This document shows, piece after piece, positions 2,091 to 10,778 of a stretch of 12,617 bases of DNA. Position 1 is the first letter of the stretch. Every line of letters begins with the position of its first letter. The position numbers were made by a program, and so were the translations under genes. Where the stretch lies: the IMG/VR virus record IMGVR_UViG_2778261256_000009. One strand, 5' to 3'. Source of the stretch: a virus (Duplodnaviria > Heunggongvirae > Uroviricota > Caudoviricetes). Under the pieces are notes generated by a model. It saw only the letters and a list, made by a program, of their open reading frames with translations. It was not told where the DNA came from and made no database searches.

Positions 2091-2453
2091 GTGAATACCT
2101 ACAGCATCACATTACCCTGGCCTCCGAGCAATAATCGCTATTACCGCCATAATCGCGGGCGCACGCACGTCAGCGCAGAGGGGCAGGCATACCGCGATAA
2201 CGTCGCCCGAATCATTAAAAACGCAATGCTGGATATCGGCCTGACTATGCCTGTGAAAATCCGCATTGAGTGCCACATGCCGGATCGCCGTCGCCGTGAC
2301 CTGGATAATCTGCAAAAAGCCGCTTTTGACGCACTCACTAAAGCAGGTTTCTGGCTGGATGATGCTCAGGTCGTTGATTACCGCGTTGTGAAGATGCCTG
2401 TTACCAAAGGTGGGAGGCTGGAACTGACCATCACCGAAATGGGGAATGAATGA
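2091..2453 (+). CDS. rusA: Holliday junction resolvase RusA (crossover junction endodeoxyribonuclease)
   Basis: [51 protein letters not shown]...[15 protein letters not shown] is near-identical to E. coli prophage RusA (recalled). GTG start at 2091. Confidence 0.9.
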
Positions 2454-2675: not shown

Positions 2676-3053
2676 ATGCGTGATATTCAGATGGTTCTTG
2701 AGCGTTGGGGAGCGTGGGCGGCTAATAATCATGAAGATGTGACCTGGTCGTCCATTGCCGCCGGTTTTAAGGGATTAATTCCTTCAAAAGTAAAATCTCG
2801 CCCACAATGTTGTGACGATGACGCGATGATCATTTGCGGGTGCATGGCCCGTCTGAAAAAGAACAACAGCGATTTGCATGATTTATTGGTGGACTATTAT
2901 GTCGGCGGCATGACTTTTATGGCGCTTGCACGTAAGCATGGGCGATCTGATTGTTGGGTTGGCAGGATGCTTCAGAAAGCTGAGGGCGTAGTGGAGGGTA
3001 TGCTGATGGTGTTGGATCTCCGATTGGAGATGGATGCTGATTGTTCGAAATAA
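2676..3053 (+). CDS. Q: Late-gene antiterminator Q (QuuD/phage-82-type)
   Basis: [33 protein letters not shown]...[31 protein letters not shown] resembles E. coli prophage QuuD-type Q (recalled). ATG at 2676 follows GGAG; the track ORF starts at an upstream TTG (2661). Confidence 0.85.
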
Positions 3054-3065
3054 TTAAAGGAAAAG

Positions 3066-3094
3066 TTGCTGTCTGATTGTCATTAGTCTAACAT
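3066..3094 (+). promoter_or_regulatory. Candidate late promoter (PR'-like), which would also carry the qut site
   Basis: TTGCTG (3066-3071), a 17-nt spacer, then TAACAT (3089-3094), located just downstream of Q and about 60 nt upstream of a terminator. This is the lambdoid PR'-qut-tR' layout. Hexamers are weak matches to consensus; position-based inference. Confidence 0.25.
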
Positions 3095-3153
3095 TTTAAA
3101 TGTTGGAATCGCAACGTAGTTATTATCATATAACAGCTTGTTTCCTGATTTAG

Positions 3154-3180
3154 CCAGCCTCCCCAAAGGCTGGTCTTTTT
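3154..3180 (+). terminator. Rho-independent terminator (tR'-like, end of the short late leader transcript)
   Basis: Stem CCAGCC (3154-3159) / GGCTGG (3168-3173), loop TCCCCAAA, then TCTTTTT. It also lies 3' of the convergent blc-like gene, so it may work in both directions, weakly on the minus strand. Confidence 0.6.
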
Positions 3181-3208
3181 CTAATAAGTATTATTTCGGG
3201 TAGGGATT

Positions 3209-3733
3209 TTATTGTTTAACCCATAATAATTCATTGACATTGAATCCCAACTTTTGAGCGGTTCGCACATAGTCTGCTTTTACTTTATCTGGAATAGTTG
3301 GGGTCCTTGCCAGAATCCATAGGTATTCTCTGTTCGGACCACTGACAAGAGCATACTTATACTCATCATCCAGTTTGATTACATTATAGCCACCATAGAA
3401 GGGGCCAAAAAACGAAACCTTCAATGCTGCAGTTTTAGTATCTCCAGTAAAGTATGCTTTACCTTCGCTCTCGCTCCATTTATTTTTCGTTGGATCGTAT
3501 CCACGGTTAAGTACACGAATCCCTCCGTCGTTCCGTTTTCCATAAGTAGCGCTGACCTGTTCCAGACCACGTTCGAACCGGTTCTCGAGGCGAGCTATTT
3601 CATACCATTTTCCGAGGTAGCGGTTGGCGTCAAAATTTGTAATCGGCTGCACACCTTTAGGTGGTGTCGGGGCCTTACATGCTATAAGAGTGAAAGAGAG
3701 TGCAATGCCAGTCAACACAGGCCATAACTTCAT
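3209..3733 (-). CDS. blc: Outer-membrane lipocalin lipoprotein, Blc family
   Basis: MKLWPVLTGIALSFTLIAC has a signal peptide and LIAC lipobox. ...NFDANRYLGKWYEIARLENRFERGLE...KVSFFGPFYGGYNVI...YLWILARTP strongly resembles E. coli Blc (recalled). Confidence 0.9.
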   Translation of the reverse strand: MKLWPVLTGIALSFTLIACKAPTPPKGVQPITNFDANRYLGKWYEIARLENRFERGLEQVSATYGKRNDGGIRVLNRGYDPTKNKWSESEGKAYFTGDTKTAALKVSFFGPFYGGYNVIKLDDEYKYALVSGPNREYLWILARTPTIPDKVKADYVRTAQKLGFNVNELLWVKQ

Positions 3734-3925
3734 AATAAATCCTGTACTTTTGATAGTTGAGAGTAAGTATGAAAGATAGATGATTACGACCGATCACTTA
3801 AAGAACTTTCATACTATATTAGGAATAGTCCATAACAGAAAAATTGTCAGTGATGACGCCAGAAAGGCAATTTATTCCGTGCACTACACAGTTTATGTGT
3901 TAATGAATTAGTCAAGGGGGAGAAT

Positions 3926-4885
3926 ATGATAAAAAAACCTGTGATTGGAATCAGCGGTTGTTTGGCCGGTTCTGCTGTTCGTTTTGATGGTGGTCACAAA
4001 AGAGCTGACTTTTTAATGGACAAATTAGTGGAATGGGTAACATTCAGACCAGTATGTCCGGAAATGGCTATAGGGCTGCCAGTTCCGCGTCCTGCTCTAC
4101 GTCTTGTGCGCTCGATGCAAGGAAATATACGGATGTGTTTCAGCCACGACCAGAATGAGGATGTGACAGAGAGAATGACAGAGTTTAGTCGTTCTTATAT
4201 GGACAAATTAAAGGATGTATCGGGGTTTGTGGTTTGTGCTAAATCTCCCAGCTGTGGCATGGAGCGCGTGCGTGTCTATGATGAAAATGGTAATCGAGGT
4301 CGTAAAGATGGAGTGGGACTATTTACGAGCACTTTGATGGAAAAGTTTTCCTGGCTACCGGTTGAAGAGGATGGGCGATTACATGATCCAGTGCTTCGTG
4401 AGAATTTTGTTGAAAGAGTTTTTGCTTTGCATGAGCTCAATCACCTTTACAAGGAGAAATTATCAAGAAGAGAGTTATTAGCTTTTCATAGTCGTTATAA
4501 GCTTCAGTTGTTGGCGCATAGTCAGGCAGGCTATAAAGATATGGGACCATTTGTGGCTGCAATACACGAGTGGGCGGACCTTGAATCATACTTTGAGGTG
4601 TATCGTGATAAGCTGATGGCGATTCTCAGAAAACCTGCATCACGTAAAAATCACACGAATGTGTTGATGCATATACAGGGGTATTTTAGTAACTACTTAA
4701 GTACACGCCAGCGTAAAGAGTTGAGCGAGGTTATACTTAACTATCGTTCTGGCACATTACCTCTTCTTGCGCCGTTGACTCTGCTGAAGCATTATCTGGG
4801 TGAGTATCCTAATGATTACTTGCTTACACAGAATTACTTCGATCCCTATCCGGACGAACTGGCTCTAAGACTGACGGTAAATTAA
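3926..4885 (+). CDS. DUF523 (TudS-like) + DUF1722 fusion protein, YbgA/RudS-like putative [4Fe-4S] thiouracil/4-thiouridine desulfidase
   Basis: N-terminal MIKKPVIGISGCLAGSAVRFDGGHK..RPVCPEM..VVCAKSPSCGME has Cys at approximately residues 12, 44, 104 and 110, consistent with the Cys ligands of TudS-family desulfidases. The C-terminal half resembles DUF1722 (YbgA-like). RBS AAGGGGGAG precedes the ATG. Family assignment is from memory. Confidence 0.7.
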   Translation: MIKKPVIGISGCLAGSAVRFDGGHKRADFLMDKLVEWVTFRPVCPEMAIGLPVPRPALRLVRSMQGNIRMCFSHDQNEDVTERMTEFSRSYMDKLKDVSGFVVCAKSPSCGMERVRVYDENGNRGRKDGVGLFTSTLMEKFSWLPVEEDGRLHDPVLRENFVERVFALHELNHLYKEKLSRRELLAFHSRYKLQLLAHSQAGYKDMGPFVAAIHEWADLESYFEVYRDKLMAILRKPASRKNHTNVLMHIQGYFSNYLSTRQRKELSEVILNYRSGTLPLLAPLTLLKHYLGEYPNDYLLTQNYFDPYPDELALRLTVN

Positions 4886-5227
4886 TTGTATGCGATATCA
4901 TCCAAAAGGATGAGTTCCTGCATGCAGGATATTTACAATCGTAAAAACTACACTATGATACCCAGAGTGTCAGTTTGTATAAAAACTCTGTTTACGCTGA
5001 AGAAACAATTGAGATGCAACTTAAAGTTGGTAAACATGCCAGTCAAAATATATAATATTATGATTCCACGCAGCTATATATAATATAACAGATTGGTTTA
5101 ATAATTTGTCTTTGTGAGTTAAATACATAATTTTATACTTGTGATGCAATGAAATTTTCCTTATTGTTGAACTGGCGAATATTGATTTTCCACCTATACT
5201 TACCTGGTGTAACCCCAATGATATCAG

Positions 5228-5968
5228 GTGGATAATATGCCATACATATGTTCTATCATTTTGGTGTTGAACTCGTTTGATGTCCGAATTGGTAAAGAAG
5301 ATATTTTGTTTAAAAAAGGAAGTGCTGTTCTCATTGATTACAATTTAAAAGATTTTTTTTCATCAAATATAGATCATGTAATGATCGTAGATGTTGAAGA
5401 GAAAACAGTTAATGATTTCTTTAAAAGCAACACACTCTCACCTTTTTCTGTAAGAAGGTTTTATCCGGCATACTTGATGGTGGAATGTGAAGATTTTTCA
5501 TTGTTAAAGAACTTGATTGCATGCTTGAATTGTGATGGCAGAACTGTGGATTTTGTTAGAAATCAAATATCACTTGCATGTCTTGCTATCTTATCTTCAG
5601 AGAAAATAGTGCAAAGTTTTTTATTTGGATGTCTTAATAGTTTAGGAAGTAAAGTTAAGGCTATTATTCACACGGATATATCTGCAGCATGGAGACTTTG
5701 TGATATATCTTCAAGACTGTATCTGAGTGAAAGTCTGTTAAAAAGAAAATTAAAGCACGAAGGCTTATCATTTAGTAAGTTAATTCTTGAAGAGCGAATG
5801 GTGATGGCGGAAAGGTTATTAAGCTACAATTTATATTCTGTTGGAAAAGTTGCTGAGATATGCGGTTATGAAAACACGTCATATTTTGTAAGTGTTTTCA
5901 GAAGGTATTTTGGTGTTCCTCCCCATCAATATTCATCAAGATTTTTTTTAGAAAAAGACATGATGTAA
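5228..5968 (+). CDS. AraC/XylS-family transcriptional regulator (C-terminal HTH), AT-rich
   Basis: The C-terminal region ...LYLSESLLKRKLKHEGLSFSKLILEERMVMAERLLSYNLYSVGKVAEICGYENTSYFVSVFRRYFGVPPHQY is a typical AraC-type double HTH. The gene and its 340-bp upstream region are markedly AT-rich. Start may be ATG 5228 or ATG 5237, which follows AGGTGG. Confidence 0.8.
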   Translation: MDNMPYICSIILVLNSFDVRIGKEDILFKKGSAVLIDYNLKDFFSSNIDHVMIVDVEEKTVNDFFKSNTLSPFSVRRFYPAYLMVECEDFSLLKNLIACLNCDGRTVDFVRNQISLACLAILSSEKIVQSFLFGCLNSLGSKVKAIIHTDISAAWRLCDISSRLYLSESLLKRKLKHEGLSFSKLILEERMVMAERLLSYNLYSVGKVAEICGYENTSYFVSVFRRYFGVPPHQYSSRFFLEKDMM

Positions 5969-6029
5969 CGTGATGCGTTTTAATGATTTTGTAATTTTCG
6001 TATTTGATAATTGTATGATGCTTTCAGCT

Positions 6030-6060
6030 ACGCCAGAATAATCGCGGCGTTTTTCTTTTT
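6030..6060 (+). terminator. Candidate intrinsic terminator downstream of the AraC-family gene
   Basis: Short stem ACGCC (6030-6034) / GGCGT (6046-6050) followed by TTTTTCTTTTT (6051-6060). The stem is weak, so confidence is modest. Confidence 0.35.
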
Positions 6061-6155
6061 GAATAGATGTTCAAGCCTTACGCTAATGTAACTTCTATAC
6101 CTTTCCTCTTCGTTCCGAACCGTGTACACCATCCGTTATTTGCGGAGGTGAGGCT

Positions 6156-6371
6156 ATGAAATCCATGGATAAGTTAACAACGGGTGTCGCCTATGGCACC
6201 TCAGCAGGTAGTGCCGGTTACTGGTTTTTACAGCTGCTCGATAAAGTCACGCCCTCACAGTGGGCAGCAATAGGTGTGCTGGGTAGCCTGGTATTTGGCC
6301 TGCTGACGTACCTGACAAACCTTTATTTCAAGATTAAAGAAGATAAGCGCAAGGCTGCGAGAGGTGAATAA
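6156..6371 (+). CDS. S: Class II holin / pinholin (phage 21 S-like), with dual-start motif
   Basis: 71 aa, [71 protein letters not shown]. Two Met codons (M1 and M4) fit the antiholin/holin dual start. Two hydrophobic segments; resembles S21/EssD (recalled). RBS GGAGGTGAGG. Confidence 0.9.
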
Positions 6372-6868
6372 TGCCTCCATCATTACGAAAAGCCGTTGCT
6401 GCTGCTATTGGTGGCGGAGCAATTGCTATAGCATCAGTGTTAATCACTGGCCCAAGTGGTAACGATGGTCTGGAAGGTGTCAGCTACATACCATACAAAG
6501 ATATCGTTGGCGTATGGACTGTATGTCACGGGCATACAGGAAAAGACATCATTCCCGGTAAAACGTATACCGAAGCAGAATGCAAAGCCCTCCTGAATAA
6601 AGACCTTGCCACGGTAGCCAGACAAATTAACCCGTACATCAAAGTCGATATACCGGAAACAACGCGCGGCGCTCTTTACTCGTTCGTCTATAACGTGGGC
6701 GCAGGCAATTTCAGAACATCTACTCTTCTTCGCAAAATAAACCAGGGCGATATCAAGGGCGCATGTGACCAGCTACGTCGCTGGGCATACGCTGGCGGTA
6801 AGCAATGGAAAGGCCTGATGACTCGTCGTGAGATTGAGCGTGAGGTCTGTTTGTGGGGGCAACAATGA
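6371..6868 (+). CDS. R: SAR endolysin (T4-lysozyme-like muramidase, R21-type)
   Basis: N-terminal Gly/Ala-rich weakly hydrophobic segment [20 protein letters not shown] (signal-anchor-release domain), then [25 protein letters not shown] carrying the E-x8-D-x5-T catalytic triad. Start overlaps the holin stop. Confidence 0.9.
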
Positions 6869-7329
6869 GCAGGGTAACCGCGATTATCTCCGCTCTGGTT
6901 ATCTGCATCGTCGTCTGCCTGTCATGGGGTGTTAATCATTACCGTGATAACGCCATCGCCTACAAAGAACAGCGCGACAAAAATGCCAGAGAACTGAAGC
7001 TGGCGAACGCGGCAATTACTGACATGCAGATGCGTCAGCGTGATGTTGCTGCGCTCGATGCAAAATACACGAAGGAGTTAGCTGATGCGAAAGCTGAAAA
7101 TGATGTTCTGCGTGATGATGTTGCCGCTGGTCGTCGTCGGTTGCACATCAAAGCAGTCTGTCAGTCAGTGCGTGAAGCCACCACCGCCTCCGGCGTGGAT
7201 AATGCAGCCTCCCCCCGACTGGCAGACACCGCTGAACGGGATTATTTCACCCTCCGGGAACGACTGGTAATGATGCAGGCCCAACTTGAAGGTGCTCAGC
7301 AATACATAACCGAGCAGTGTTTAAAGTAA
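6865..7329 (+). CDS. Rz: Rz i-spanin
   Basis: ATG at 6865 overlaps the endolysin stop (ATGA). N-terminal TM segment [21 protein letters not shown] followed by a charged, coiled-coil-like periplasmic domain. Resembles lambda Rz. Confidence 0.85.
7085..7270 (+). CDS. Rz1: Rz1 o-spanin lipoprotein, embedded in the +1 frame of Rz
   Basis: [53 protein letters not shown] has a lipobox (VVGC) and a proline-rich mature region. Lies wholly inside Rz in another frame, the classic spanin arrangement. Confidence 0.8.
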
Positions 7330-7466
7330 AATCTTAACTACAATATGATTCATTTTGATGATTGTTTCATAAGGAACAGTGAAGTAAGATCTAAGAGGAG
7401 TTAAATTTTATACAGTATAATCATAATATTGCAGCAAGGTGGTTATAATTGAAAGAATATTTAGAT

Positions 7467-8924
7467 ATGAATACATCTCATGTAAGAGTTGTTACTCATA
7501 TGTGTGGGTTCCTGGTTTGGCTCTATAGTCTTTCAATGTTGCCACCAATGGTTGTAGCATTGTTTTATAAAGAAAAAAGCCTGTTCGTTTTCTTTATAAC
7601 TTTCGTTATATTTTTTTGCATTGGTGGCGGAGCGTGGTATACAACTAAGAAATCTGGCATTCAATTACGTACCCGTGATGGGTTTATTATAATTGTAATG
7701 TTTTGGATTTTGTTTTCTGTTATTAGTGCATTCCCTTTATGGATTGACTCAGAACTTAATTTAACGTTCATTGATGCTCTGTTTGAAGGGGTTTCTGGAA
7801 TAACAACAACAGGAGCAACTGTAATTGATGATGTTAGTTCATTACCTCGGGCATATTTGTACTATCGGTCACAGTTAAATTTTATAGGTGGTTTAGGAGT
7901 TATTGTTCTGGCGGTTGCTGTATTGCCATTATTGGGTATTGGTGGTGCAAAGCTTTATCAGTCAGAAATGCCGGGGCCATTTAAGGATGACAAACTCACT
8001 CCCCGCCTGGCCGATACGTCACGGACACTGTGGATAACTTATTCTTTATTAGGTATTGCTTGTATTGTCTGTTATAGACTTGCAGGAATGCCTTTGTTTG
8101 ATGCTATTTGTCACGGGATTTCCACAGTTTCGCTTGGTGGTTTCTCAACTCATAGCGAGAGTATCGGATATTTTAATAACTATTTGGTTGAGCTGGTGGC
8201 TGGTTCTTTTTCCCTGCTATCGGCTTTCAACTTCACTCTTTGGTATATTGTTATTAGCAGGAAAACGATAAAACCTTTAATCAGAGATATTGAACTTCGT
8301 TTCTTTCTGTTAATAGCCTTAGGGGTGATCATTGTTACCTCTTTCCAGGTCTGGCATATAGGTATGTATGACTTGCATGGAAGTTTTATTCATTCGTTTT
8401 TTCTTGCCAGCTCCATGCTCACTGATAATGGTTTAGCTACGCAGGATTATGCAAGTTGGCCCACGCACACGATAGTGTTTTTGCTGTTGTCAAGTTTCTT
8501 TGGGGGATGTATAGGTTCAACTTGTGGTGGAATTAAGTCACTTCGATTTCTTATACTTTTCAAACAAAGCAAACACGAGATAAATCAGCTTTCTCATCCC
8601 AGAGCGTTGTTGAGTGTAAATGTAGGAGGGAAGATAGTTACAGATCGTGTAATGAGGTCTGTATGGAGTTTCTTTTTTCTTTATACTCTCTTCACGGTGT
8701 TTTTTATACTGGTGTTAAATGGTATGGGATATGATTTTCTTACATCATTTGCAACAGTGGCTGCATGTATTAATAATATGGGATTAGGTTTTGGGGCTAC
8801 TGCATCGTCATTCGGAGTGCTTAATGACATTGCAAAATGTTTAATGTGCATAGCTATGATTCTTGGTCGCCTTGAAATTTATCCTGTTATTATATTGTTT
8901 TCAGGTTTTTTTTGGCGCTCCTAA
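7467..8924 (+). CDS. trkG: TrkH/TrkG-family potassium uptake transporter (Rac-prophage TrkG-like)
   Basis: 485-aa polytopic membrane protein from ATG 7467, MNTSHVRVVTHMCGFLVWLYSL..., with several glycine-containing selectivity-filter-like P-loops (e.g. GVSGITTTGATV, GISTVSLGGFS, ACINNMGLGFG). AT-rich. Matches E. coli K-12 TrkG as recalled. The track ORF starts at an upstream TTG (7449). Confidence 0.9.
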   Translation: MNTSHVRVVTHMCGFLVWLYSLSMLPPMVVALFYKEKSLFVFFITFVIFFCIGGGAWYTTKKSGIQLRTRDGFIIIVMFWILFSVISAFPLWIDSELNLTFIDALFEGVSGITTTGATVIDDVSSLPRAYLYYRSQLNFIGGLGVIVLAVAVLPLLGIGGAKLYQSEMPGPFKDDKLTPRLADTSRTLWITYSLLGIACIVCYRLAGMPLFDAICHGISTVSLGGFSTHSESIGYFNNYLVELVAGSFSLLSAFNFTLWYIVISRKTIKPLIRDIELRFFLLIALGVIIVTSFQVWHIGMYDLHGSFIHSFFLASSMLTDNGLATQDYASWPTHTIVFLLLSSFFGGCIGSTCGGIKSLRFLILFKQSKHEINQLSHPRALLSVNVGGKIVTDRVMRSVWSFFFLYTLFTVFFILVLNGMGYDFLTSFATVAACINNMGLGFGATASSFGVLNDIAKCLMCIAMILGRLEIYPVIILFSGFFWRS

Positions 8925-9061: not shown

Positions 9062-9853
9062 ATGAGCGAGAAATTAAAGATAGTCTATCGCCCATTACAA
9101 GAATTGTCACCGTATGCGCACAACGCCAGGACGCACAGCCCTGAGCAGGTGGCACAACTGGTAGAAAGTATTAAGCAATTCGGCTGGACTAATCCGGTGC
9201 TGATTGACGAAAAGGGCGAAATTATTGCGGGTCACGGTCGTGTTATGGCGGCTGAAATGCTCAAAATGGATTCTGTTCCGGTCATTGTTCTGTCTGGCCT
9301 GACGGATGAGCAGAAAAAGGCGTACCGCCTGGCAGATAATCGCCTGCCGATGAATGCTGGCTGGGATGAAGATCTGTTGCGGATGGAGCTGTCGGACCTA
9401 ATCAATGCTGATTTTGATGTCTCCCTGACAGGCTTCATCCCGACAGAAATTGATGAACTGTTGACGGATGTTTTGCCCGGTACAGGAAATGAGGAGGAGC
9501 CGTATACGACGAAAATTGATACGCCTGTTTATGAGCCGTCGGGCGGTAAACCGGATATCAGTGAACTGTACGACGATACGAAAACTCAGGAGCTGATCAG
9601 CCGGATACGTTCGGCGTCCCTTGAGCCTGATATTGAGAAATTCCTCCTGTGTGCGGCAGAACGTCACACGGTGTTTAATTTCAGCAGAATTGCGGACTAT
9701 TACGCTCACGCCCCCTCTGAAATTCAGTGTTTTTTCGAGGAGTCGGCGCTGGTGATCATTGATTATCAGCAGGCTATTGAAAATGGATTTGTCCGGATGA
9801 CGCAGCGCATGGTGGAGATCATGCATGGTGGTGAGGAGGAGGAATATGCGTGA
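9062..9853 (+). CDS. ParB N-terminal-domain (ParB/Srx-like nuclease domain) protein, YnaK-like
   Basis: The N-terminus LKIVYRPLQELSPYAHNARTHSPEQVAQLVESIKQFGWTNPVLIDEKGEIIAGHGRVMAAEML shows the ParB-N fold signature, including a GxxR box. C-terminus is acidic. Occupies the position after trkG that ynaK holds in Rac (recalled). Confidence 0.75.
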   Translation: MSEKLKIVYRPLQELSPYAHNARTHSPEQVAQLVESIKQFGWTNPVLIDEKGEIIAGHGRVMAAEMLKMDSVPVIVLSGLTDEQKKAYRLADNRLPMNAGWDEDLLRMELSDLINADFDVSLTGFIPTEIDELLTDVLPGTGNEEEPYTTKIDTPVYEPSGGKPDISELYDDTKTQELISRIRSASLEPDIEKFLLCAAERHTVFNFSRIADYYAHAPSEIQCFFEESALVIIDYQQAIENGFVRMTQRMVEIMHGGEEEEYA

Positions 9854-10778
9854 TGATTTTTGCGCCTTTATTCTGACTCACGGGCGACCGGACAAAGTTC
9901 TGACTTACCGGACGTTGCGTCGTGCTGGCTATACCGGGAAAATTTTTATCGTTGTTGATGATGAAGATAAGACACGGAATCAGTACATGGCTGAATTTGG
10001 TGAACAGGTGCTGGTGTTTTCCAAAGCCGATATCGCCAGTCGTTTTGACGAAGCCGATAATTTCTGTGACCGCCGCTCAATTTTTTACGCCCGTAATGCC
10101 TGTTTCGACCTGGCAAAACTGGTCGGGTGTAAATACTTCATTCAGCTCGATGATGATTATCACGAGTTCCAGTTTCGGGTGGATCGCAACTATGACCAGG
10201 CCTATTTTCCGATAAGGAAACTGGATGCGATCCTTTCTGAAATGCTGGCGTACTACGAATCAATACCTGCTCTTTCCATCGCTATGTCGCAGGGCGGGGA
10301 TTTTCTTGGTGACAATGGCGGCCATGCTTCGTGGGTGAAACGCAAGGCAATGAACAGCTTTATCTGTTCGGTTGATCGACCGTTCTCATTCATGGGGCGC
10401 ATTAACGAGGATGTGAATACGTACACGAATCTCGGTCGCTGTGGTGAATTGTTTATGACGATCGGTGCTGTCCAGTTAGGGCAGAAACAGACGCAGAAAA
10501 ACAGCGGCGGAATGACCGAGCTGTATCTGGATTCCGGAACCTACGTTAAAAGTTTTTACTCCGTCATGTATGCGCCGTCGTGCGTAAAAATCTCACTGAT
10601 GGGTGCCAGCCATAAACGCATTCACCATCAGGTCACCTGGAACAACGCTGCAGTAAAAATCCTTCACGAAAAATACAGGAAGAAGACACCCTGCATATCA
10701 ATGGGGGTGACAAATGATTCCGTATTCGAAAGTCGAGTCTCTGGCAGCGTGCCGGATGACTGCACAACAAATCGCTGA
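9846..10778 (+). CDS. Uncharacterised protein with a GT-A-fold-like motif pattern (possible nucleotide-sugar transferase); function unknown
   Basis: ATG at 9846 follows a strong GAGGAGGAGG RBS and overlaps the ParB-like stop by 8 nt. The pattern FILTHGRPDKV .. IFIVVDDEDK .. YFIQLDDDYH resembles the beta1 / DD / DxD layout of GT-A glycosyltransferases. This is a motif-level inference only. Confidence 0.55.
   Translation: MRDDFCAFILTHGRPDKVLTYRTLRRAGYTGKIFIVVDDEDKTRNQYMAEFGEQVLVFSKADIASRFDEADNFCDRRSIFYARNACFDLAKLVGCKYFIQLDDDYHEFQFRVDRNYDQAYFPIRKLDAILSEMLAYYESIPALSIAMSQGGDFLGDNGGHASWVKRKAMNSFICSVDRPFSFMGRINEDVNTYTNLGRCGELFMTIGAVQLGQKQTQKNSGGMTELYLDSGTYVKSFYSVMYAPSCVKISLMGASHKRIHHQVTWNNAAVKILHEKYRKKTPCISMGVTNDSVFESRVSGSVPDDCTTNR

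Follow-up and report, generated by a model that had tools for sequence, protein, structure and literature searches.

RudS is the name given by Jamontas et al. (2024) to proteins in which TudS is fused to DUF1722 (PMC11417400). One of the enzymes tested in that work, RudS_vir, is the product of H3V29_gp66 of Escherichia phage 1H12. Overexpression of RudS_vir in E. coli lowers the 4-thiouridine (s4U) content of tRNA, and overexpression of RudS lessens the growth delay induced by ultraviolet A (UVA) light (PMC11417400). The same authors state that RudS homologues are missing from E. coli (PMC11417400). Mathieu et al. (2020) count a lipocalin gene, blc, among the morons and report it for over half of 19 lambdoid phages from the gut (PMC6969025). 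PatE, PsrA and PsrB of enterohaemorrhagic E. coli (EHEC) O157:H7 act on gadE/hdeA and on the enterocyte effacement locus, LEE (PMC10877973). Relatives of all three kinds of gene stand side by side in the locus described here, a 3.1-kb island (positions 3054-6155) between the Q antiterminator gene and the holin gene S of a lambdoid prophage. The prophage DNA is a stretch of 12,617 nt from IMG/VR record IMGVR_UViG_2778261256_000009; this whole stretch is called the window below, and coordinates are positions in it unless another locus is named.

It is probable that the locus is a composite moron island, which lies in the leader of the lambdoid late operon and carries two cargo units of different origin, a divergent pair of lipocalin and rudS genes and a gene for an AraC-type regulator. 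As a whole, it is an ordinary, very common and partly characterised moron island and is in this sense already known. What is added here is the split into two origins, the linkage of lipocalin and RudS across the Enterobacterales, the placement of the regulator with PatE and Psr, and a correction of the statement on RudS in E. coli.

The island proteins and the origin of the two units

The lipocalin matches Lipocalin_2 (E=7e-44) and the PDB entry of Blc (E=3.5e-69), scores 316 bits against the cut-off of 267 for the Blc subfamily in NCBIfam, and is 60% identical to K-12 Blc. Its lipobox, LIAC, with Cys19 and a Lys (not an Asp) at position +2 (MKLWPVLTGIALSFTLIAC-K), was read directly from the sequence with no predictor, and on this reading the protein is an outer-membrane lipoprotein. 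By analogy with Blc, it probably binds lysophospholipids or damaged lipids or fatty acids.

The RudS of the window consists of a TudS domain (PF04463, 2-thiour_desulf; residues 7-149, E=4.5e-40) followed by DUF1722 (PF08349; residues 192-309, E=5.8e-41). It is identical to RudS_vir (1H12 gp66) at 298 of 319 residues (93%) and to the protein of phage IdasGreatGrand at 316 of 319. The cysteines of the [4Fe-4S] cluster, Cys12, Cys44 and Cys110, are kept at the positions that they have in RudS_vir and are invariant in an alignment of 13 sequences, as are Glu46, Arg55, Ser107 and Ser109. Mapped by their offset from the cysteines, these four residues correspond to Glu51, Arg60, Ser111 and Ser113 of RudS_KT, and mutation of these catalytic residues inactivates RudS_KT (PMC11417400). 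By analogy with the assayed enzymes, the window RudS is taken to be a [4Fe-4S] desulfidase that converts s4U in tRNA to uridine.

The AraC-type protein has a C-terminal AraC/XylS double helix-turn-helix (HTH; HTH_18, residues 161-237, E=1e-14; HTH_AraC, E=2e-11), and an AGGTGG Shine-Dalgarno sequence precedes the ATG of its gene at 5237. The family has a narrow range, with hardly any members outside E. coli. Identity is 54% over the full length to ECs_0287 of strain Sakai (235 aa), the product of the AraC-like gene that lies where prophage Sp1 ends, and 48% to PsrA (ECs_1087), with only 32-34% to GadW, AppY and YdeO; these comparisons place the protein in the PatE/Psr family of prophage regulators. 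Assignment as YdeO was considered and rejected, as the protein scores 127 bits against the NCBIfam equivalog cut-off of 348.

The closest non-phage relatives of both members of the lipocalin/rudS pair are found in the same kinds of organisms. The RudS proteins (70-77% identical) are chromosomal and come from Citrobacter, Klebsiella, Enterobacter, Serratia, Pectobacterium and their relatives; the lipocalins are 74-82% identical. Two chromosomal arrangements were seen. In one, the lipocalin gene is divergent from a gene for an MlrA-like MerR regulator, which is followed, sometimes with a transthyretin-like gene, by rudS. In the other, it is divergent from a nine-gene operon in the order SnoaL, SDR, amine oxidase, DUF1365, CFA-synthase-like, DUF2878, an unassigned gene, DUF3833 and RudS. 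A survey of RudS loci, with one genome per species, gave 80 loci in two clades. The 28 loci of clade A encode RudS proteins 68-77% identical to the phage enzyme, and the MlrA-like gene lies upstream in 24 of them; 15 have a divergent lipocalin gene within 10 kb, whose product shows the 74-82% identity given above. The 52 loci of clade B are more distant, at 55-63%, and in 49 of them a photolyase gene follows immediately downstream, the position that phr has behind ybgA in E. coli. In Kluyvera cryocrescens (L052), a gap of 116 bp that holds no regulator gene separates the lipocalin and rudS genes, which is the geometry of the phage.

The intergenic region of the phage pair is about 93% conserved among the phage variants, and its first ~105 bp align to the strongly conserved intergenic region between the lipocalin and MlrA-like genes of the chromosomes; a shared motif reads TTCATACTATATTAGGA in the phage and TTCGTAGTATATTGAGA in the chromosomes. 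Because the contexts place both genes in one chromosomal locus and the promoter regions are homologous on the lipocalin side, the lipocalin and rudS genes probably entered the phage as one piece, taken from a conserved locus of enterobacterial chromosomes, with loss of the regulator and retention of part of the promoter region. The region 3734-3925 thus probably holds ancestral promoters. The rudS_ST locus of Salmonella (orf319) appears to belong with these chromosomal lipocalin/MlrA/RudS loci.

Some further observations concern the chromosomal relatives. A gene of 174-175 aa beside DUF3833 in the chromosomal RudS operons was tried as the lipocalin and discarded, as it has no similarity and the true lipocalin gene lies divergently upstream. 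A search of the literature for lipocalins in LitR light regulons gave nothing useful. In K-12, the ybgA-phr locus (L005 2502-4426), when compared with loci L058-L109, has only the DUF1722 part, YbgA, whose identity to the phage RudS is 49% over the C-terminal half of the latter; ybgA is preceded by an H-repeat transposase gene, and it may be the remnant of a truncated rudS. A clade B locus lies in a prophage of Proteus myxofaciens (L093 5118-12754), with rusA, a PF06530 Q 43% identical to that of the window, a tail-lysozyme-like protein and a RudS of 57% identity. RudS is followed there by an ADP-ribosyltransferase A subunit of the pertussis/LT-like type (motif YRVDSRSPNDIFTNGF) and by two small open reading frames (ORFs) for secreted products. 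With an AB5-like toxin as its neighbour, this RudS gives the impression of having been captured independently downstream of Q. The other two clade B loci that have no photolyase gene downstream are L110, with a partial Q match, and L072.

The regulator gene has a different background. Relatives 64% and 56% identical to it stand alone between Q and the same S21-type holin gene (L019, L020), and the Q proteins of these loci are of other families (PF03589 in L019, PF06323 in L020). A protein 84% identical to PatE stands alone between Q and S, and psrA lies downstream of Q in Sakai prophage Sp4, together with tRNA genes. Further phage relatives are found in mEp332, PhiR70_1 and ev099 (52-53%) and in an Stx2k phage (39%). 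Behind the AraC gene, 1H12 and strain HS have a terminator-like hairpin with a T-run, ACGCCAG-AATAAT(C/T)G-CTGGCGTTTTTCTTTT, and a diverged form of it, CGCCAG-CATTATTG-CTGG with a T-run, follows the lone PatE-like gene of L020. The base composition of the island differs from that of the flanking phage genes, as that of a moron should, and it differs within the island as well: the GC fraction is 0.29-0.33 over 4800-6000, which is the AraC unit, 0.38-0.46 over the pair and 0.49-0.53 in the flanks. The lone paralogues in the slot, the hairpin of its own, the position of psrA and the much lower GC all suggest that the AraC unit is independent of the pair. The composition and contexts of the trio thus fit two independently acquired units, with the AraC gene, in the manner of a classical moron, joining the slot separately.

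Two variants with the pair only (H78, H79) were considered as an ancestral state lacking the AraC gene; H79 turned out to be an IS1-mediated deletion, so it is no evidence for such a state. The slot of Sakai Sp4 (L022 36716-42009) holds psrA, a CAAX protease gene, the tRNA genes ileZ-argN-argO and an ORF of 617 aa; the lysis genes lie further on, inverted and interrupted by insertion sequence (IS) elements.

Distribution, mobility and selection

In a megablast search with 3054-6155, 1156 of 5426 complete E. coli genomes had an island match. These fall into sequence classes of at least 99% identity (603), 95-99% (121), 90-95% (324) and 80-90% (108). Genomes with at least 80% of the island covered, which were counted as carriers, number 992, or about one in five. 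Thus, the absence of RudS is true of laboratory strains of E. coli and not of the species. The island is also present in 12 phage records, among them IdasGreatGrand (99.2% identical) and 1H12 and the Lambda_ev infant-gut series (~89%), and all three proteins are already in PHROGs as full-length phage families with no function assigned.

These counts largely undercut the suggestion of the sequence-only reading that the trio is an unusual, undescribed module. That reading named two findings that would speak against it. The first, a common and already characterised block, holds for the first adjective; the block is characterised only in parts, through the moron list with blc (Mathieu et al. 2020; PMC6969025), in which the other two island genes go unmentioned, through the RudS_vir assay, and through the PatE and PsrA kin of the AraC gene. 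The literature search found no paper treating the three genes as one module. The second, an assembly chimera in which Q and the lysis genes do not belong together, is rejected: 25 complete genomes contain the 12.6-kb window as an uninterrupted stretch, nearly from one end to the other (one as a single 98.7% alignment), and the order of Q, trio and holin recurs in isolated phages.

The order Q, lipocalin (minus strand), RudS, AraC and holin was found in every context examined. These are a decayed remnant at att-lambda (L001), a fuller prophage at the same site (L113), the Qin-like prophage of strain HS, in which an essQ/rrrQ lysis cassette replaces essD/rrrD, and phages 1H12 and IdasGreatGrand, whose replication and head modules differ. 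The closest complete relatives are integrated at att-lambda, between ybhC and ybhB. The same order on differing backbones indicates that Q and the island move as a mosaic block among lambdoid phages. The window Q is identical to that of IdasGreatGrand at all 125 residues and to that of 1H12 at 121 of 125, and the late leader/tR' region is almost unchanged among the window, 1H12 and HS variants. What fills the slot between homologous flanks varies: DLP12 has nmpC there, L019 and L020 have the PatE-like gene alone, and Sakai Sp4 has different cargo. Beside ybhB, the att-lambda prophages carry at their far end a gene for a diguanylate cyclase with a sensor domain (L001 29616-30947, L112 10853-12184, L113 31492-32823), which may be a further lysogenic-conversion gene of this prophage family.

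The ratio of nonsynonymous to synonymous substitution rates (dN/dS) was computed between the sequence classes, for lineages with dS of 0.05-0.36. It is 0.06-0.12 for the lipocalin gene, 0.11-0.22 for rudS and 0.26 for the AraC gene; the phage genes Q and S gave 0.03-0.10 and 0.05-0.12. The low values in all three island genes show that they are maintained by purifying selection, and the ORFs are intact in the isolated infectious phages and in most genomes.

Disrupted copies are also frequent. The island is broken by IS1, IS2, IS3 or ISKpn26 in about a quarter of the matches listed (H1, H2, H15-H17, H23, H26, H45, H48, H49, H54, H65, H68 and H70), and in some of these copies RudS is split into separate DUF523 and YbgA ORFs. 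In BL21(DE3), the lipocalin gene and a shortened TudS portion are all that is left. The closest genome to the window, that of a pig isolate from Viet Nam (NZ_AP023286.1; L113 17162-22643), is 100% identical over two pieces and has a Tn6330-like composite transposon, ISApl1-mcr-1.1-pap2-ISApl1, within the AraC gene of the island. The AT-rich AraC gene can thus serve as an insertion target, in this one genome for an mcr-1 transposon.

Possible roles in the lysogen and after induction

By combining the comparative evidence, it is possible to outline how the island might act. In a lysogen, the pair would be driven by the divergent promoter region that it has kept, with the MlrA-like regulator gone. 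RudS would lower the s4U content of tRNA and so blunt the growth delay caused by near-UV light, and the lipocalin would act on lipids at the outer membrane. The AraC-like protein would act on AT-rich host promoters, possibly those of GAD/hdeAB; by analogy with its EHEC relatives, it may activate the gadE/hdeAB acid-resistance promoters. Upon induction, rudS and the AraC gene would in addition be swept by Q-antiterminated transcription, since both are co-oriented with the late operon, while the lipocalin gene would then be read antisense.

The suggestion in the sequence-only reading that these genes are lysogen-expressed morons fits the comparative evidence, namely the partly retained ancestral promoter region, the hairpin between the AraC gene and S, and purifying selection; promoter-like sites are not above the level of shuffled sequence.

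Several points weigh against this picture. The search found 13 promoter-like sites, with 10.6 +/- 3.1 expected in shuffled sequence, and is thus uninformative; expression and function in the lysogen are argued from sequence. The frequent interruption by IS elements suggests that selection is weak in many hosts. The identity of the pair to the chromosomal loci at the DNA level is just 65-74% and is confined to the coding regions, and none of the 80 loci is a recent donor; together with the higher AT content of the phage copies, this suggests an old capture. The equation of ECs_0287 with PatE is drawn from the designation z0321 (OI-8) in a review (PMC10877973) and from gene position. Compared with 1H12 and HS, and with the more diverged copy in L020, the hairpin behind the AraC gene of the window lacks one T in the stem, and it folds with only -8.1 kcal/mol (z +0.6). 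Finally, tRNA desulfidation by RudS_vir was the weakest of the enzymes tested in spite of good expression, and RudS_vir gave the shortest lag and best growth on 4-thiouracil among the RudS proteins tested (PMC11417400). Taken together, these last two results suggest that tRNA is possibly not the main substrate.

The main rival explanation is that rudS, and perhaps the AraC gene, are auxiliary genes of the lytic cycle, which matter mainly when they are transcribed from pR' after induction. The UV light that induces the prophage also crosslinks s4U8 to C13 in tRNA and thereby stalls translation, and erasure of s4U would let protein synthesis go on and so protect the burst size. Both genes share the late strand and come right after Q and tR', ahead of S; the RudS of the Proteus prophage is downstream of Q on the same strand, apparently through an independent capture; and the reduced UVA growth delay upon RudS overexpression (PMC11417400) agrees with a protective effect. 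However, the lipocalin is encoded by the opposite strand, which excludes its gene from the late operon, the pair appears to retain its own ancestral promoter region, and the late phase would be short for an Fe-S enzyme to turn over the tRNA pool. Furthermore, the block is intact in heavily decayed remnants that cannot be induced (L001), in which selection could not act on a purely lytic role. A predominantly lytic role is therefore unlikely, even if it is the strongest of the alternatives to expression in the lysogen.

A second possibility is that RudS serves in the salvage or detoxification of thiolated nucleobases or nucleotides, such as 4-thiouracil and 4-thiouridine monophosphate (4-thio-UMP), as stand-alone TudS does. 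The behaviour of RudS_vir described above, a short lag on 4-thiouracil with low tRNA desulfidation at a high protein level, is what such a role would predict. On the other hand, purifying selection has kept DUF1722, the tRNA-binding domain, in full, the s4U of tRNA fell with every RudS variant, RudS_vir included, and none of them supported growth as TudS does (PMC11417400). Salvage is thus somewhat less likely than a lytic role.

About as doubtful as salvage is a more far-reaching idea, in which the pair is a portable 'sunlight kit' that was captured more than once, by the E. coli phages and in the Proteus prophage (L093). The kit would lower s4U and protect the outer membrane in the lysogen, and rudS driven from pR' would erase s4U upon UV induction. 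If this were true, UV-damaged hosts would keep translating the late proteins of the phage, and the phage would tune tRNA modification to its own induction signal.

It is improbable that the island is functionless passenger DNA, which decays while it hitch-hikes with the Q-lysis region. The IS interruptions, the mcr-1 transposon in the AraC gene, the IS1-mediated loss of that gene, the truncated copy in BL21 and the damaged terminator after the AraC gene in the window are all of the kind expected from decay, but dN/dS of 0.06-0.26, mostly intact ORFs and the intact catalytic residues of RudS argue against it. Least probable of all is an anti-phage defence or superinfection-exclusion cassette: the slot is a known hot spot for accessory genes, and its neighbours (trkG, and ParB-like plus TAGT genes) show that host-interaction functions collect here, but PADLOC gave no match for the three island proteins and each has a well-supported family of homologues outside defence.

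A composite island that acts mainly in the lysogen thus remains the favoured reading, and it bears on several questions. Differences among strains in the 4-thiouridine content of tRNA and in near-UV sensitivity may hinge on prophage content. The lipocalin-RudS linkage offers a testable functional partner for a poorly understood lipocalin family. Acid resistance in EHEC is rewired by PatE/Psr-type regulators, and relatives of these are widespread among the prophages of commensal E. coli, in the same slot of the late leader.

Layout of the window and comparison with known systems

The gene order derived from profile matches identifies the window as the late-regulatory and lysis region of a lambdoid prophage (Table 1). 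Profile searches place the three island genes exactly where the sequence-only reading had them, and its anatomy of Q, tR', lipocalin, RudS-like fusion, AraC and holin, with mixed orientation and low GC, was right, as was its comparison with DLP12, where the K-12 order is quuD, nmpC (minus strand), essD.

Table 1. Features of the 12,617-nt window, in order of position.
Feature	Position	Strand	Remarks
ninB, methyltransferase, ninE, rusA	rusA 2091-2453		upstream of Q
Q antiterminator, QuuD-like	2676-3053	+	PF06530, Pfam E=2.5e-51
Late-promoter leader and tR'-like intrinsic terminator	3054-3184	+	hairpin 3153-3174, T-run to 3184; terminator scan
Blc-type outer-membrane lipocalin lipoprotein (predicted)	3209-3733	-	174 aa
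Divergent lipocalin/rudS intergenic region	3734-3925		
RudS, TudS+DUF1722 fusion	3926-4885	+	319 aa
Hairpin directly 3' of rudS	4886-4928	+	stable, without a clear T-run
AraC/XylS-type regulator	5237-5968 (alternative start 5228)	+	243-246 aa
Terminator-like hairpin and T-run, AraC gene to S	6030-6060	+	
S21-type (P21-type, class II) holin, first gene of the lysis cassette	6156-6371	+	PF04971, E=2e-35; essD in L001, L113
Endolysin (lysozyme)	6371-6868	+	PF00959, E=9e-46
Rz	6853-7329	+	PF03245, E=4e-53
Rz1, embedded in Rz	7085-7270	+	ORF with VVVGC lipobox
TrkG-like potassium transporter	7449-8924		TrkH family, E=5e-145; GC ~0.33-0.41
ParB-like YnaK homologue overlapping TAGT-domain protein	9062-10778		

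The start of Q is at 2661 in the ORF list; the start adopted here is that of the 378-nt RefSeq gene in L001, L112 and L113. A putative late promoter, TTGCTG-17-TAACAT, can be recognised at about 3066-3094. The tR'-like structure folds with -14.2 kcal/mol (z -3.1) over 3140-3190 and with -25.6 kcal/mol (z -4.0) over 3095-3190. The segment 4880-4960, which contains the hairpin behind rudS, folds with -21.4 kcal/mol (z -3.6), and none of 200 shuffled sequences was as stable. Read-through into the holin gene could be higher in the sequence class of the window, because of the weakened hairpin after the AraC gene. A search of Rfam found no known RNA element in the window, and no tRNA genes were found in it, unlike in the slot of Sakai Sp4.

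Two further loci lie downstream of the lysis genes. The trkG-like gene, right after Rz/Rz1, is a second AT-rich cargo gene and occupies the same place as trkG in the Rac prophage of K-12. It is followed by the YnaK homologue and the protein with a TAGT (TET-associated glycosyltransferase) domain, which matches a PHROG annotated as beta-glucosyl-HMC-alpha-glucosyltransferase. These two genes are directly upstream of the terminase small subunit gene and may form a DNA-modification module. The order Rz-TrkH-ParB_N-TAGT-terminase is shared with L020.

The island resembles several known systems and differs from each of them. The window RudS and RudS_vir have the same TudS and DUF1722 domains, the same length, and the same cysteines and Glu/Arg/Ser/Ser set, and RudS_vir lies in the same Q-holin slot of 1H12, with the same two neighbour genes. 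The window copy belongs to the class of at least 99% identity, as does that of IdasGreatGrand, and 1H12 to the 89% class; the work on RudS_vir treats the gene alone, without its neighbours (PMC11417400).

E. coli Blc (PDB 1QWD, 2ACO, 3MBT) has the Lipocalin_2 fold, lipoprotein signal and length of the phage lipocalin. It is, however, a paralogue, whose chromosomal gene adjoins ampC, and the nearest kin of the phage protein are the RudS-linked lipocalins of other genera. The chromosomal loci of Enterobacter, Serratia, Lelliottia and Kluyvera share with the phage the divergent arrangement of lipocalin and RudS and a homologous promoter region on the lipocalin side. The phage copy differs from them in that it has no MlrA-like regulator, transthyretin-like gene or CFA-synthase-like operon, has a lower GC, and sits in the leader of a late operon.

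PatE (z0321), PsrA (z1789/ECs1087) and PsrB resemble the island regulator in size class, C-terminal AraC HTH, AT-richness and location in a prophage, but only about half of the residues are common to it and PatE or PsrA, and many carriers of the island have no LEE. As for the slot, stxAB of the Shiga toxin (Stx) phages and nmpC of DLP12 occupy the same position between Q/tR' and the holin gene, and the mixed orientation of the island is that of nmpC. The cargo here is neither a toxin nor a porin, and Q-dependent expression of its co-oriented genes would follow by analogy with those systems.

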